DNA of 64,000 nucleotides from Escherichia coli (GTDB lineage: Bacteria > Pseudomonadota > Gammaproteobacteria > Enterobacterales > Enterobacteriaceae). Shown here piece after piece: positions 16,119 through 20,073 of the stretch. Within the stretch, counting starts at the first letter, position 1; each line of letters begins with the position of its first letter. Location: assembly GCF_003334785.1 (NCBI RefSeq), contig NZ_QOWV01000001.1; one strand, given 5' to 3'. The position numbers and the translations under genes were made by a program. Under the pieces are notes generated by a model. It was not told where the DNA came from and did not search any database. It worked only from the letters and a program-made list of their open reading frames with translations.

Positions 16119-16972
16119 GCACCATCCTGAAATGGGCGGGAAATAAAACCGCCATTATGCCAGAACTGAAAAAATACCTTCCTGCTGGCCCGCGACTGGT
16201 TGAACCTTTCGCGGGTTCCTGTGCTGTGATGATGGAAACGGATTATCCCAGCTATCTGGTTGCGGATATTAATCCTGATTTAATCAACCTCTATAAAAAG
16301 GTTGCCGCTGATTGTGAATCGTTTATATCTCGCGCCAGAGTTTTATTTGAGATCGCAAACAGGGAGGTGGCTTATTACAACATAAGGCAGGAGTTTAACT
16401 GCTCAACTGAAATTACTGATTTCATGAAAGCGGTATATTTCCTGTATCTCAATCGTCACGGTTACCGTGGTTTATGTCGCTATAACAAGAGCGGGCATTT
16501 CAACATTCCCTACGGTAATTATAAAAATCCGTATTTCCCTGAAAAAGAACTTCGTACATTTGCAGAAAAAGCCCAGCGAGCAACGTTTATCTGCGCCAGC
16601 TTTGATGAAACGCTGGCGATGTTGAAGGCGGGAGATGTGGTGTATTGCGATCCGCCATATGACGGTACGTTTTCCGGCTATCACACTGATGGTTTCACTG
16701 AAGATGACCAGTATCACCTGGCATCCGTTCTTGAACATCGGTCATCAGAAGGACATCCGGTCATTGTTTCTAACAGTGACACATCCCTGATCCGTTCGCT
16801 GTATCGCAATTTTACTCACCACTATATCAAGGTAAAACGCAGCATCGGTGTGGCAGCTGGCGAGGGTAAATCAGCAACAGAAATCATTGCTGTTTCCGGG
16901 CCGCGCTGCTGGATGGGATTTGATTATTCGCGTGGCGTGGATAGTTCTGCCGTGTACGGAGTACGTGCATGA
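16115..16972 (+). CDS. dam: Prophage DNA adenine methyltransferase (Dam family)
   Basis: 285 aa from ATG 16115 (ATGA overlap with the upstream stop). It has [23 protein letters not shown], the SAM motif EPFAGSCAV and the catalytic DPPY (VYCDPPYDG). Confidence 0.9.
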
Positions 16973-19900
16973 GTCATGCCGATATGAACAACTGCTGCGG
17001 CTTTAACGAGGCTGCCGCAGCATTCTCATGGAACAGCCCGAAAAAGGCCATTAACCCTTATCTGGACCCGGCGGAAGTTGCGCCGGTTTCTACGCTTTCA
17101 AACCTGATCACTCTGTACGCTGCCGATAACGAGCAGGAACAGTTGCGCCGCGAGGCACTGAGTGATCAGGTCTGGGAGCGTTATTTCTTTAATGAATCAC
17201 GTGATCCTGTCCAGCGCGAAATGGAGCAGGATAAGCTCATTAGCCGGGCAAAGCTGGCGCATGAGCAGCAGCGTTTTAATTCAGACATGGTCATTCTGGC
17301 GGACGTCAACGCCCAGCCTTCCCATATCAGCAAGCCGCTGATGCAACGTATTGAATACTTCAGCAGCCTGGGCAGGCCAAAGGCTTATTCCCGCTATTTA
17401 CGTGAGACGATTAAGCCATGTCTGGAACGACTGGAGCATGTACGCGACAGTCAGCTATCTGCATCTTTTCGCTTTATGGCAAGCCATGAAGGGCTGGACG
17501 GCCTGCTGATCCTGCCTGAAATGAGTCAGGATCAGGTGAAACGCCTGTCCACCCTGGTAGCTGCGCATATGAGTATGTGCCTTGATGCAGCTTGTGGTGA
17601 TTTGTATGCCACCGATGACGTTAAGCCAGAAGAAATCCGCAAGACATGGGAAAAGGTGGCAGCGGAAACCCTGCGTCTGGATGTCATCCCACCTGCGTTT
17701 GAGCAACTCCGTCGGAAAAGAAACCGCCGTAAACCCGTGCCCTATGAACTCATTCCGGGTTCGCTGGCGCGTATGTTGTGCGCCGACTGGTGGTATCGGA
17801 AATTATGGAAGATGCGTTGCGAATGGCGGGAAGAGCAGTTGCGCGCAGTTTGCCTGGTCAGCAAAAAAGCATCTCCTTATGTCAGCTATGAAGCCGTGAT
17901 GCATAAACGTGAGCAGCGCCGTAAGTCGCTGGAGTTTTTCCGTTCTCATGAACTGGTGAACGAAGACGGCGACACGCTGGACATGGAGGATGTGGTAAAC
18001 GCCAGCAGCAGCAACCCTGCGCATCGCCGCAATGAGATGATGGCCTGTGTTAAAGGTCTGGAGCTTATCGCGGAAATGCGCGGTGACTGCGCCGTTTTCT
18101 ACACTATCACCTGTCCGTCGCGTTTCCATTCCACGCTAAATAACGGCAGACCAAACCCGACCTGGACAAACGCGACGGTAAGACAAAGCAGCGATTATCT
18201 GGTCGGCATGTTTGCTGCATTTCGTAAGGCGATGCACAAAGCCGGGTTGCGCTGGTATGGCGTGCGGGTGACGAAGGATGCGATGGGAACCATCCAGCGT
18301 GTACTGGAGAAGGTGAACGCACTGCCGCAGGACAAGCGTCTGTCTGCCATGACCATGTTGTTTGGTAAAGAGTTTGGCGATGACGCGGCGAAACTGGCAA
18401 ACAACCTGCCGGAACTACAGCGCCAGCTAAAACTGACAGCGGGCAATGATGCGCTCGGTTCGATGCAGAAAGAATCCGACATCAACAAAGACTCACTTTC
18501 TGCTCAGTGGTTGCTGGTCAAAACCGGAGCGCAGAACACCTTCAGCAGCCTGGGCGAAACGCTGCGCCAGCCGCTGATGGATATTCTGTACACGGTGAAA
18601 AGCGTCACGGGGGCGTTGCGCCGCTGGGTGGAAGCTAACCCGGAACTGACAGGCACACTGATGAAAGTAGTGGCTGTTGTGGCTGCGGTTACCGTAGGCC
18701 TCGGCACCTTAGCGGTGGCGCTGGCTGCAGTGCTGGGGCCGCTGGCAGTGATCCGTCTGGGATTCTCTGTGCTGGGTATCAAAACGTTACCTTCCGTTAC
18801 GGCAGCAGTAACCCGAACCAGCAGCGCGTTGTCCTGGCTGGCTGGCGCACCACTGGCACTGCTGCGACGCGGGCTTGCTTCATCGGGCAACGCCGCAGGT
18901 TTACTTACTGCGCCGTTGTCGTCTTTGCGCCGCACGGCATTACTGACGGGAAATGTCCTGAAAACTGTAGCAGGTGCGCCGGTTGCACTTTTGCGGTCTG
19001 GATTATCCGGTTTACGTGCTGTTGCTGTGATGTTTATGAATCCTCTGGCGGTACTGCGCGGTGGACTGGCCGCCGCAGGCACGGTGCTGCGAGTACTGGC
19101 ATCTGGTCCACTGGCGATGCTGCGCGTTGCCCTGTATGCCGTATCTGGTCTGTTAGGTGCTCTGCTCAGTCCGATAGGTCTTGTGGTTACTGCACTGGCG
19201 GGCGTGGCGCTGGTTGTCTGGAAATACTGGCAACCCATCACCGCATTTCTTGGTGGCGTGGTGGAAGGATTCAAAGCGGCGGCAGGTCCCGTCAGTGAAG
19301 CATTCGAACCGCTTAAGCCCGTGTTCCAGTGGATTGGCGACAAAGTACAGGCGCTGTGGGGCTGGTTTACTGATCTGCTGACGCCCGTTAAGTCGACCTC
19401 TGCCGAACTGCAGAGTGCAGCGGCAATGGGGCGACGATTCGGGGAGGCACTGGCGGAAGGGCTAAATATGGTCATGCATCCGCTGGACTCCCTGAAATCC
19501 GGCGTTTCCTGGTTGCTGGAGAAGCTCGGCATTGTCAGTAAAGAGGCCGCAAAGGCAAAACTTCCGGAAAGCGTGACGCGTCAGCAACCTGCGACGGTGA
19601 ATGCAGACGGTAAAGTGATGATGCCATCGGGTGGTTTTCCATCATGGGGATATGGCTTTGCGGGGATGTATGACAGCGGCGGGTATATCCCGCGCGGGCA
19701 GTTTGGCATCGTCGGTGAAAACGGGCCGGAAATTGTTAACGGCCCGGCAAATGTGACCAGCCGGAGAAATACAGCTGCACTGGCTGCCGTTGTTGCCGGA
19801 ATGATGGGAGTTGCTGCCGCGCCAGCAGAGCTTCCACCGTTGCACCCTTTGGCACTTCCCGCGAAAGGTGGAGAAGCAATTGTGAGTCGCGCAGCCACTG

Positions 19901-20073
19901 TGCCGCCCGTTTACAGGATTGAGGCACCGACGCAGATCATCATCCAGACGCAGCCAGGACAAAGTGCGCAGGATATTGCGCGGGAGGTGGCCCGCCAGCT
20001 TGATGAACGTGAACGCAGGCTGAAGGCAAAGGCCAGGAGTAACTACAGCGATCAGGGGGGATACGACGCATGA
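16969..20073 (+). CDS. Chimeric ORF: N-terminal ~434 aa of replication initiator gpA fused in frame to C-terminal ~600 aa of tail tape-measure gpT
   Basis: The protein reads ...[11 protein letters not shown] | [45 protein letters not shown].... The A-like part stops just before where P2/186 gpA carries its HUH motif (EPHHDGTPHWH). The rest has tape-measure features: a hydrophobic segment, five xPLAxLRxGL repeats and a C-terminal Gly-rich region. The junction is near nt 18270/18271. Confidence 0.8.

Follow-up and report, generated by a model that had tools for sequence, protein, structure and literature searches.

The window analysed here, a 64,000-nucleotide stretch of Escherichia coli DNA (NCBI RefSeq assembly GCF_003334785.1, contig NZ_QOWV01000001.1), carries a remnant of a 186/P2-like prophage whose features are collected in Table 1. 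Insertion at rybB, a published P2-type integration site (PMC3032704), was recognised from the recurrence of the left-end att 14-mer at the 3' end of the rybB sRNA gene, in agreement with an earlier interpretation made from the DNA letters by themselves (hereafter the sequence-only reading). The cargo gene is the one that this reading had called a membrane nuclease; it is also carried by the intact prophage of E. coli GF124.3 described below and was therefore not gained with the deletion. The ogr/B gene has a promoter-like site of its own (21678-21705, promoter scan).

Table 1. Features of the prophage remnant and of the chimeric reading frame (positions are those of the window)
Feature	Position	Strand	Basis or remark
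attL core AACAAAAAACCCAT, left end of the ~11.6-kb remnant	10452..10465	.	same 14-mer again at 22039-22052
Phage integrase	10540..11592	-	Pfam Int_N and Phage_integrase; annotated 'phage integrase' in syntenic loci
Cargo gene, DUF4041/SNIPE + T5orf172/MUG113 nuclease-like, 558 aa	11675..13351	-	Pfam
186-type CI repressor, apparently intact, 198 aa	13372..13968	-	Pfam Phage_CI_repr and Phage_CI_C
Candidate pR-like early promoter, TTGACA-17-TAGTAT	13962..13990	+	consensus scan
DNA adenine methylase (dam)	16115..16972	+	Pfam MethyltransfD12; 858-nt length from relatives
A-derived part of the chimera	16969..18270	+	A nt 1-1302, aa 1-434; 3 nt/0 aa differences from CPE35 A
Recurrent-breakpoint core GTGCGGGTG	18262..18270	+	same endpoint in EC05, MB19/IMGVR and, reciprocally, BL21
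T-derived part of the chimera	18269..20073	+	T nt 1274-3078, last 600 aa of the 1025-aa tape measure
TG microhomology at the deletion junction	18269..18270	+	three-way alignment of chimera, A and T
Hydrophobic block of the T part, aa 560-605	18646..18783	+	Kyte-Doolittle scan
Five repeats xP(L/V)(A/S)x(L/M)Rxx(L), ~21-22-aa spacing, aa 627-722	18847..19134	+	regex scan
gpU tail protein	20070..20555	+	Pfam Phage_P2_GpU
gpD (late control D / baseplate hub)	20552..21652	+	Pfam Phage_GPD
ogr/B late-gene activator	21743..21961	+	Pfam Ogr_Delta; 219-nt length from relatives
rybB sRNA, 3' end bears attR core 22039-22052	22039..22117	-	Rfam RF00110, 105 bits

Between dam and U lies a single open frame with an ATG start (16969-20073, + strand, 1034 codons plus stop), in which codons 1-433 encode residues identical to those of replication initiator A as it occurs intact in a related prophage, A and T meet in the hybrid codon 434, and codons 435-1034 encode the C-terminal 600 residues of T, the tail tape-measure protein. 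For A, an ungapped comparison with the intact gene of E. coli CPE35 (L003:8970-11384) gave three mismatches across nt 1-1302 and loss of identity beyond, and the T gene of phage 500465-1 (L002:24486-27563) was used as the T reference, identity to which begins at ORF nt 1301, corresponding to T nt 1274. A three-way alignment of the chimera with A and T placed the junction at 18269/18270, with a 2-nt overlap, TG, occupying these two positions. The chimeric ORF is a real A::T fusion: the sequence-only reading had described it as gpA residues 1-434 joined to the C-terminal 600 residues of gpT, with the breakpoint at nt 18270, and the alignments put the breakpoint at the same nucleotide, match each part to its parent and reduce the microhomology to the TG dinucleotide. 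The coupling to dam and U noted in that reading was found at both ends, the dam stop overlapping the chimera start as ATGA (16969-16972) and the chimera stop overlapping the U start likewise (20070-20073); both overlaps are the native arrangements of A and T and were not made by the deletion. NCBI carries the exact chimeric protein as EEZ6071233.1 and others under the name 'phage tail tape measure protein', which is unsuitable for the fusion.

The only Pfam match in the chimera was to Phage_GPA (PF05840; E = 1.2e-86), covering residues 188-435 and profile positions 1-244 of 321. The A part, identical to intact CPE35 A at 433/433 residues, keeps the N-terminal region and motif I of the HUH domain. 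In intact A the HUH metal-binding motif starts directly past the breakpoint, the residues after 434 reading AEPHHDGTVHWH in intact A and TKDAMGT in the chimera, from which the motif is absent; the nickase site is therefore lost, as had been argued from the window. The catalytic tyrosines (YxxxY, in SYIAKYISK) are also absent from the chimera, their motif falling in the deleted segment of A. The ori nick is annotated at A nt 1859 of 2286 in P2 and at nt 1833 of 2085 in 186; the homologue of ori, GGCAATAACTGT, is found at about A nt 2035, within the deletion, and the cis-acting ori has thus been lost. Compared with gpA of P2 and 186, an HUH rolling-circle initiator, the chimera therefore shares the first 433 residues and the first 244 profile positions, whereas the HUH metal-binding motif, both catalytic tyrosines, the C-terminal third and the internal ori are missing, and the A part is therefore unable to nick DNA or to initiate replication.

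The T part shows 96.5-99.8% nucleotide identity to the T genes of phages and prophages, and the final 600 residues of the chimera are 99% identical to intact T proteins of P2-like phages, with four amino-acid differences in 600 from the T protein of GF124.3. The hydrophobic segment and the five repeats to which the sequence-only reading had drawn attention were both located in this part (Table 1). The hydrophobic block has a counterpart, with substitutions (VV for AS in MKVVAVV), in the intact T of phage 500465-1, and the repeats, which start at aa 627, 648, 670, 691 and 713 of the chimera, are native tape-measure features, since intact T has all five. In contrast to gpT of P2-like phages, the chimera lacks the N-terminal 425 residues, only T nt 1274-3078 remaining, and all partner genes required for building a tail were deleted together with the start of T, among them E/E' (the chaperone genes), FI, FII and all baseplate genes; tube and sheath are lost as well. 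A tape measure determines tail length by its own length, and the T fragment therefore cannot serve as one. From the segments retained, the fusion product would be expected to have neither parental activity.

The undeleted form of the prophage, for which a search at rybB had been proposed, was found at the same locus in E. coli GF124.3, where an intact prophage of ~37 kb, cargo gene included, lies between rcdA and rybB-ybjL as in the window. The window aligns with GF124.3 in two collinear blocks, 10581-18270 and 18269-23997 (99.3% and 99.6% identity, respectively), between which 25,298 bp are missing. This one gap accounts for the loss of the rest of A, cos, the head and lysis genes and most of the tail genes, which the sequence-only reading had attributed to a single deletion. 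A search of 50,697 phage records and 5,426 complete E. coli genomes gave no place at which 80% or more of the ORF is covered, and hence no contiguous homologue of the 1034-aa protein in an intact phage, the presence of which the earlier interpretation had named as contrary to a fusion. The exact protein was found on 13 contigs of draft E. coli genomes and the A::T junction in 0 of the 5,426 complete genomes. Both halves run collinear with the intact prophage found at this locus and meet in one junction with a TG overlap, as in a deletion-fusion pseudogene, and the A and T parts differ from intact relatives by 0 and 4 amino acids, respectively, which leaves no time for decay. Fusion of A to a late gene is an ordinary process with many other examples, including A440::K, A425::FI, A425::I, A575::D, A607::D, A203::U, A93::D and A117::J.

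The remnant shares its integration site with cryptic P2/186-like rybB prophages such as Rybb*B, known from E. coli B/BL21, and with the K-12 ogr-D' remnant (PMC3032704), as well as the gene order int, CI, early operon ... U, D, ogr and the pattern of internal deletions with both prophage ends retained; unlike these, it has a single clean 25.3-kb deletion that fuses A and T in frame. The ORF is, with high likelihood, a fusion pseudogene, the recent neutral scar of the 25,298-bp deletion in a 186/P2-like prophage (Peduoviridae) at rybB, and the fusion is very probably functionless. The deletion joined A nt 1302 to T nt 1274/1276 over the 2-nt TG overlap and happened to leave the frame open.

The candidate promoter at 13962-13990 was the sole + strand promoter-like site upstream of the chimera in the consensus scan, and is weak evidence because the promoter-like sites of the region do not exceed those of shuffles. 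It matches in position pR of phage 186, which is annotated as repressed by CI, and the SOS antirepressor gene (tum / DinI-like) falls within the deleted interval. With the candidate promoter under CI control and the antirepressor deleted, the fusion would be expected to be silent in the lysogen, and the deletion scar would appear to be neutral. An opposing account would treat the fusion as a domesticated, selected protein, in which a nuclease-dead A N-terminus is tethered to a membrane-active T C-terminus and is used, for example, for the exclusion of superinfecting P2-like phages or in partnership with the DUF4041/SNIPE nuclease. It would draw on the 3.1 kb of open frame with native ATGA coupling to dam and U, on the in-frame joining of all three junctions at A nt 1302 (see below) to their partners (T, LysC and E), and on a slight over-representation of in-frame fusions among database chimeras (16/~26). 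However, this excess mostly disappears after allowing for fusions that are out of frame and have tails of under 12 aa, which could not be classified, and with 0 or 4 differences from intact parents the open frame is uninformative; as the sequence-only reading had stated, it is a 1-in-3 event and no proof of selection. The restriction of the fusion to the 13 draft contigs, with none in the 5,426 complete genomes, also speaks against selection, as do the other remnants at the locus, in which T fragments occur without a fused frame and are annotated as pseudogenes, the CI control of the sole upstream promoter-like site with the antirepressor deleted, and the presence of the cargo nuclease equally in the intact prophage. 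Domestication is thus very improbable, and the functions that had been offered as speculation, namely interfering with phages that enter the cell or interacting with the nuclease encoded nearby, found no support, the upstream promoter candidate being CI-controlled and the T fragments of other remnants unfused.

The left end of the deletion coincides with a nucleotide-precise breakpoint, A nt 1301/1302, that recurs in unrelated E. coli prophages. Three independent deletions end at A nt 1302, each with a different partner, T nt 1274 in the window, lysC nt 72 in EC05 and E nt 53 in MB19 and an IMG/VR contig (L017); the A flanks of these junctions show 3.1-3.7% mutual divergence, and that of the window is 99.7-99.8% identical to intact A genes. 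The reciprocal junction, cII::A, is found at the A nt 1301/1302 spot in BL21. Three further sites recur among the 22 mapped junctions, in which at least six coincident breakpoint pairs were observed against ~0.18 expected by chance; the loci were found via their similarity to the window, which biases the choice of remnants but leaves the nucleotide at which each of them broke unaffected. The position of the left end of the deletion is probably non-random. The recurrence was invisible to the sequence-only reading.

The breakpoint core is identical at 9/9 positions, in register, to the cleavage core of the phage Mu strong gyrase site (SGS), GTGCGGGT/GATT (sequence as printed in the supplement of PMC6379681; cut position from PMC9886550); the proposed type II topoisomerase cut falls between T18269 and G18270. 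GCGGGT/G is found again at a second endpoint, K nt 159, and the 37-kb prophage has just 9 GCGGGTG. A T/G step is present in both parental sites of the A::T deletion and at both parents in 8/22 junctions overall, and the overlaps (2 nt in the window, mostly 1-3 nt elsewhere) amount to little or no homology. The match of the GTGCGGGT/G core to the Mu SGS at a recurrent site therefore suggests gyrase-initiated illegitimate recombination, an established proposal (PMC11164529). DNA gyrase, or another type IIA topoisomerase, would break the A site, and this break would then be joined to a second such break via subunit exchange or end-joining. Such a gyrase step is put forward, tentatively, as the most likely mechanism behind the deletion.

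The T/G steps and scant homology resemble those of the Ikeda gyrase model, in which exchange occurs between two cleavage complexes, although part of the junction set is not T/G, the recurrent site at I nt ~278 being T/C. When sites were matched crudely to the 133-nt Topo-Seq consensus, the A site reached the 94th percentile, equal to the Mu SGS; scores were high solely for the A and E sites and middling for most partner sites, and the quinolone-type preference for C at +4 was not seen (2/9 sites). The published Topo-Seq maps are of K-12 strains, W3110 / DY330 derivatives (PMC6379681). The likeness to the Mu SGS lies in the 9-nt core, whereas the strength of the Mu SGS has been ascribed to its right arm and not to the core (PMC13284261); the Mu SGS acts in Mu replication, via the arms on either side of it, and the A site is intragenic and would be a liability.

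An ordinary microhomology-mediated deletion, arising by replication slippage or through RecBCD-dependent end-joining and needing no site-specific break, is possible, though less likely than not, and the reuse of A nt 1302 would then reflect the good annealing of the G+C-rich GCGGGTG to GCNGNTG partners. Short overlaps (1-8 nt, often imperfect) occur at every junction, the nt-1302 partners GCAGATG, GCGAGTG and GCCGCTG share 5-6/7 positions with GCGGGTG, and the overlap at the BL21 junction, GTGCGG, is a perfect 6 nt. A 5/7 match is, however, too common in 37 kb to account for 3-4 nucleotide-exact breaks in lineages 3% apart. Moreover, the partner sites share bases that are missing from A, the first two retained being AC in 3/3, and the partners of a hub in the P/O intergenic region share CAACGCC(T)G, which the hub itself lacks; bases shared among partners and not found in A or the hub therefore indicate properties of the sites over mutual homology.

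A two-step origin, in which A nt 1302 was first joined to lysC or to the end of E, as in EC05 or MB19, and a second deletion then ran from this junction to T nt 1276 via the newly made TGAC(G), would provide overlaps exceeding the TG of a one-step event: the EC05-type junction GGGTGACGCCG has TGACG in common with the T site GCAGATGACGAAGG, and the MB19-type junction GGGTGACCGAAG has TGAC..GAAG in common with it. Such an origin is nevertheless improbable, because the second deletion would have to begin exactly at the old junction, so that a hot spot is required regardless, and because the A flank of the window, 99.7-99.8% identical to intact A, is ~3% off the EC05 and MB19 flanks, which are thus not its ancestors. 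No intermediate was found in the data searched, the 5,426 complete E. coli genomes among them.

Breakage of nt 1302 by a phage enzyme or by RecBCD, with the site acting as a secondary origin for the A nickase, a pseudo-cos for terminase or a Chi-like octamer, was judged very improbable. The Chi octamer is GCTGGTGG; the sequence GCGGGTGG is one position off it and oriented to halt RecBCD arriving from cos, but the prophage has no true Chi, and the Chi model fails for the reciprocal junction of BL21. GGCGTG-CGGG is similar to the start of phage cos, GGCGTGGCGGGG, yet at least 12 other sites in the prophage resemble cos to an equal or greater degree, and the top matches do not include the A site. 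The ori nick site, ~730 nt further downstream, does not resemble the hot spot.

Returning to the gyrase reading, the P2/186-like prophages of E. coli may possess a few nucleotide-precise, gyrase-cut fragile sites, exchange or joining between which would be a main route of their disabling and domestication, a proposal that we advance with reserve. The putative sites, equally provisional, are A nt 1301/1302 (GTGCGGGT/G), E nt ~55, K nt 159 and the P/O late-promoter dyad. Exposure of the host bacteria to fluoroquinolones could conceivably promote such exchange, of which the A::T fusion would be one product. The fusion in itself, yet another mark left by prophage decay, is minor; the recurrent breakpoint is of greater use. 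If natural prophage deletions do begin again and again at one phosphodiester bond, within a sequence identical to the best-studied gyrase cleavage core, prophage inactivation would be steered in part by topoisomerase site preference, and not by random decay; natural populations would lend support to gyrase-mediated illegitimate recombination, which has so far been supported mostly by in vitro and lambda-transduction experiments (PMC11164529); and quinolone use would be tied to reshaped prophage content.

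The open reading frame carrying the fusion was compared base by base, in ungapped alignments, with intact A of E. coli CPE35 and T of Escherichia phage 500465-1, and was found to be a single uninterrupted frame of 1034 codons. Nucleotides 1-1302 of the ORF differ from CPE35 A by three mismatches and the match ends after nt 1302, while the match to T runs from ORF nt 1301 (T nt 1274) to the stop codon, leaving a microhomology of 2 nt shared by the two parents; this alignment fixes the breakpoint of the gpA::gpT chimera at nt 18270, where the sequence-only reading had placed the switch. 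In the protein, residues 1-433 are those of intact A with no differences, codon 434 (GTG, V) is a hybrid, and residues 435-1034 correspond to T residues 426-1025 and differ at four positions from T of the E. coli GF124.3 prophage. The hydrophobic segment and five repeats previously assigned to the T part were located there. Intact A reads on from the junction into AEPHHDGTVHWH (the HUH metal-binding motif), with SYIAKYISK (the catalytic tyrosines, YxxxY) about 60 residues beyond, and the nickase active site hence lies outside the fusion, as had been argued; WYGVRVAEPHHDG occupies the breakpoint position in all 110 collected A proteins that retain the region. A Pfam search of the fusion returned Phage_GPA alone, as an incomplete match (profile positions 1-244 of 321). 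The proposed translational coupling to dam upstream and U downstream is borne out by an ATGA overlap at each end (dam/ORF and ORF/U), both already present in the parent genes. As to structure, the earlier interpretation was correct throughout.

The remnant that carries the fusion measures 11.6 kb and lies between 14-nt direct repeats, one copy of which forms the 3' terminus of rybB; this sRNA gene is a published P2-type prophage insertion site in the E. coli strains W, B and Crooks (PMC3032704). A search for an undeleted form at rybB identified an apparently complete prophage of ~37 kb in E. coli GF124.3, at the same site and with the same cargo gene. The window aligns with it in two collinear blocks of 99.3% and 99.6% identity, between which 25,298 bp are absent, in agreement with the single deletion proposed from sequence. 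The missing interval takes in the last 1113 nt of A, ori included, as well as a small ORF, a DinI-like tum homologue, a pair of defence-like cargo genes, cos, every head and lysis gene, and the tail genes up to mid-T.

Positions of features in the window and at related loci (L020 ref, reverse-complemented coordinates of the GF124.3 prophage)
Feature	Position	Detail
Fusion ORF	window 16969-20073 (+)	
Parental overlap at junction	window 18269-18270	TG
Hot spot in the window	window 18262-18270	GTGCGGGT/G
Hydrophobic block of fusion	aa 560-605	native T feature
Five repeats of fusion (starts)	aa 627, 648, 670, 691, 713	native T features
Direct repeats	window 10452 and 22039	AACAAAAAACCCAT; copy at 22039 in rybB
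Gene order of remnant		int, DUF4041/SNIPE-T5orf172 cargo, 186-type CI repressor, early operon, fusion, U, D, ogr
Early operon of remnant		apl-like, cII, fil, DUF5347, DUF2732, traR-like, dam
Difference near attL	window 10581-10583 vs L020	~350 bp
Cargo gene	window 11675-13351 (-)	558 aa; DUF4041/SNIPE + T5orf172/MUG113 (GIY-YIG-like); between int and CI
Promoter-like site	window 13962-13990 (+)	TTGACA-17-TAGTAT
Rfam matches ES036 (CssrF), naRNA4 (CssrE)	window 33793-33835, 34815-34895	host flank
763-aa ORF	window 57312-59603	presumably clpA
Two type I-F CRISPR repeats	window 59816-59895	GTTCACTGCCGTACAGGCAG...
tRNA-Ser(GGA)	window 59947-60034	
Intact A, E. coli CPE35	L003:8970-11384	reference
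T, Escherichia phage 500465-1	L002:24486-27563	reference
A/lysC junction, E. coli EC05	L004:~10014-10022	
A/E junction, E. coli MB19	L001:~12965-12975	
MB19-type junction, IMG/VR contig	L017:3489-3497	
cII/A junction, E. coli BL21	L007:~9000-9014	reciprocal arrangement
E nt ~55 endpoint	L020 ref ~35321-35328	MB19, S43
P/O intergenic endpoint	L020 ref 21452/21453	CPE35, GF31
I nt ~278 endpoint	L020 ref ~29513-29517	locus L013, LR-45

Further differences were observed within the prophage. Near attL, ~350 bp of GF124.3 are missing from the window and from several relatives; a 270-nt ORF lies there in GF124.3, and the 5' end of its int differs. The fil-DUF5347 interval, too, exists in two forms, and both differences have the look of module exchanges and not of deletions. 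In other remnants the int-CI slot, or int-adjacent cargo, holds KAP NTPase, Panacea domain and small ORFs (defence-like or uncharacterised), and retron St85, TIR, SEFIR, HIRAN, AAA ATPase and P-loop NTPase genes lie between A and the portal gene; these two slots are cargo hot spots of P2-like prophages. Elsewhere in the window, the two CRISPR repeats stand 60 nt apart around one spacer, between the 763-aa ORF and the tRNA gene, and they resemble the known E. coli orphan mini-array between clpA and infA; the two Rfam matches, in the host flank, are unrelated to the prophage.

The exact 1034-aa protein was found on 13 draft E. coli contigs at the same locus; assembly GCA_012211965.1 is one carrier of the fusion. 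No match covering at least 80% of the ORF was present in 5,426 complete E. coli genomes or in 50,697 phage records, and the latter search thus yielded no contiguous homologue of the whole protein in intact phages. Both halves are near-identical to intact relatives, for which reason the deletion must be recent and limited to a small clade, and the open frame is therefore uninformative on selection, as the sequence-only reading had also argued. The NCBI entries of the fusion (EEZ6071233.1, HAH2814477.1 and others; RCR45195.1) are labelled 'phage tail tape measure protein', which conceals its 42% content of replication protein A; an 850-aa version starting from an internal Met (P0002) serves as cluster representative. 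Many comparable A::late-gene fusions are present in databases, and 16 of ~26 such chimeras are in frame, an apparent excess that is not robust to unclassifiable short-tail cases. A second protein search, using A residues 1-220, returned short proteins only, many of them frameshifted or contig-end fragments, and was helpful for early breakpoints without constituting an unbiased census. Separately, A-protein clusters P0012 and P0015-P0017 (53-224 members) stop at or just past residue 397/398 (GRPNPT), and the tail of one of them resembles a frameshifted reading of the following codons; either a frameshift allele of A is common, or the clusters are artefacts of assembly or of contig ends.

A functional gpA is defined by HUH, the tyrosines and ori, and a functional gpT by its full length and the tail operon. 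The fusion lacks HUH, the catalytic tyrosines and ori and hence cannot start replication; nor can it measure a tail, 41% of the T length and every partner gene having been lost. In phage 186 the early operon is annotated as driven by pR and repressed by CI, and the same control was assumed here by homology; the sole + strand promoter-like site between CI and ogr adjoins the CI gene, as judged by a weak, consensus-only scan. The late promoter that normally serves FI-FII-E-T-U-D and the LexA-controlled antirepressor were deleted with the interval. With the early promoter under CI control and the late promoter and antirepressor gone, the remnant should be locked in a repressed state. Other remnants at the locus carry T fragments of varied length, without a fused frame and annotated as pseudogenes. 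The fusion is very probably a neutral scar, and the speculative anti-phage role suggested for it found no support.

The left breakpoint of the deletion (A nt 1301/1302, within GTGCGGGTG) was found to recur. In E. coli EC05, a different remnant at the same locus, A ends at nt 1302 and is followed by lysC; in E. coli MB19, a remnant at ssrA, an A fragment (nt 328-1302) is followed by the terminal 20 codons of E, immediately ahead of T. The three junctions are independent events in three phage lineages, because the 950 nt to their left are 3.1-3.7% apart among window, EC05 and MB19 and the left flank of the window is 99.7-99.8% identical to intact A genes. BL21 shows the reciprocal arrangement, with A from nt ~1302/1303 onwards attached to cII nt ~337, and further breakpoints lie close by (A~1275::FI, A1280::I and A1321::K). 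The MB19-type junction was also recovered on one IMG/VR contig, a single hit from a pattern scan; scans of metagenomes and GTDB for further nt-1302 junctions gave chance matches only, in unrelated high-G+C genomes.

Twenty-two deletion junctions from 14 remnants were mapped onto the GF124.3 prophage. Three further sites, in E, in the P/O intergenic region and in I, each served twice as an endpoint, with different partners, and at least six coincident endpoint pairs (within 3 nt) were observed against ~0.18 expected by chance (44 endpoints, 37 kb). The remnants were gathered by similarity to the window, which biases the remnants sampled and not the exact breakpoint nucleotide. The P/O site sits in the middle of a TGT-N12-ACA dyad, the spacing of P2 late-promoter activator sites. 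Nine of the 22 mapped right ends fall within T, a gene occupying 8% of the prophage (loci L003, L004, L022-L025, L011, L013 and L001); this enrichment may be sampling bias, the loci having been ranked by coverage of a query containing the 3' part of T. Among the mapped remnants, only MB7671 (D truncated) and LR-45 (U and most of D lost) do not retain the whole of U, D and ogr.

Several causes of the hot spot were considered and rejected. The annotated P2/186 ori nick sites and the homologous sequence ~730 nt downstream of nt 1302 bear no similarity to it. Chi (GCTGGTGG) is absent from both strands of the remnant and of a relative; a one-mismatch octamer overlaps the site, and Chi would leave the reciprocal BL21 junction unexplained. 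Likeness to the phage's cos is unexceptional, a dozen prophage sites matching equally well or better and the A site falling outside the top matches. The +/-80-nt fold is no better than shuffles (z = -0.17), with no notable repeats. Candidate protospacers with AAG/ATG PAMs overlap the hot spot, and self-targeting CRISPR was dropped because Cas3 deletions are not nucleotide-precise. Invertase, integrase and Xer pseudo-sites showed no resemblance in an informal comparison with consensus sequences.

A further candidate is DNA gyrase. The 133-bp fragment of the phage Mu strong gyrase site (SGS) contains ...CTGTGCGGGTGATTTTATG... (supplement of PMC6379681) and the cut falls at 5'-T/GATTT-3', staggered by 4 bp (PMC9886550). 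Set in the register of this cut, the A hot spot, GTGCGGGT/GGCT, shares with the Mu SGS all eight bases preceding the scissile bond and the G that follows. All three partners of nt 1302 (...TG then AC...) and A itself (...TG then GC...) show a T/G step and then purine-pyrimidine; K nt 159, the partner of A1321, also reads GCGGGT/G, and GCGGGTG occurs only nine times in the 37-kb prophage. The sequences at the step are T/GGCT in A, T/GACC at E nt ~55, T/GTCT at K nt 159 and T/GACG at T nt 1274, and T/G is found at both parents in 8 of the 22 junctions. Gyrase-mediated illegitimate recombination, through a quinolone-enhanced exchange between two cleavage complexes, was proposed long ago and has lately gained biochemical support (PMC11164529; PMC11784200). 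Under this mechanism gyrase would cut at A nt 1301/1302, and exchange between two cleavage complexes would then produce the deletion junction. Several observations stand against it: position +4 shows no enrichment of C, one of the recurrent sites has T/C, and the strength of the Mu SGS has been credited to its right arm and not its core (PMC13284261). In addition, the consensus match is high only for the A site (41/129, equal to the Mu SGS, 94th percentile) and the E site (88th), by a crude match count to the 133-nt Topo-Seq consensus. Gyrase is tentatively suggested as the agent behind the hot spot, an attribution rather less likely than not, and plain microhomology joining, with no site-specific cut, is rated about as probable an origin of the junctions.

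The ORF is classed as a deletion-fusion pseudogene of a cryptic 186/P2-like prophage, a known kind of object at a known integration site. No description of a recurrent nucleotide-precise breakpoint with a gyrase-core match was found in the literature searched, and this breakpoint and its resemblance to a gyrase cleavage core would constitute the new element. The breakpoint pattern is of moderate interest, and the fusion itself of low interest.
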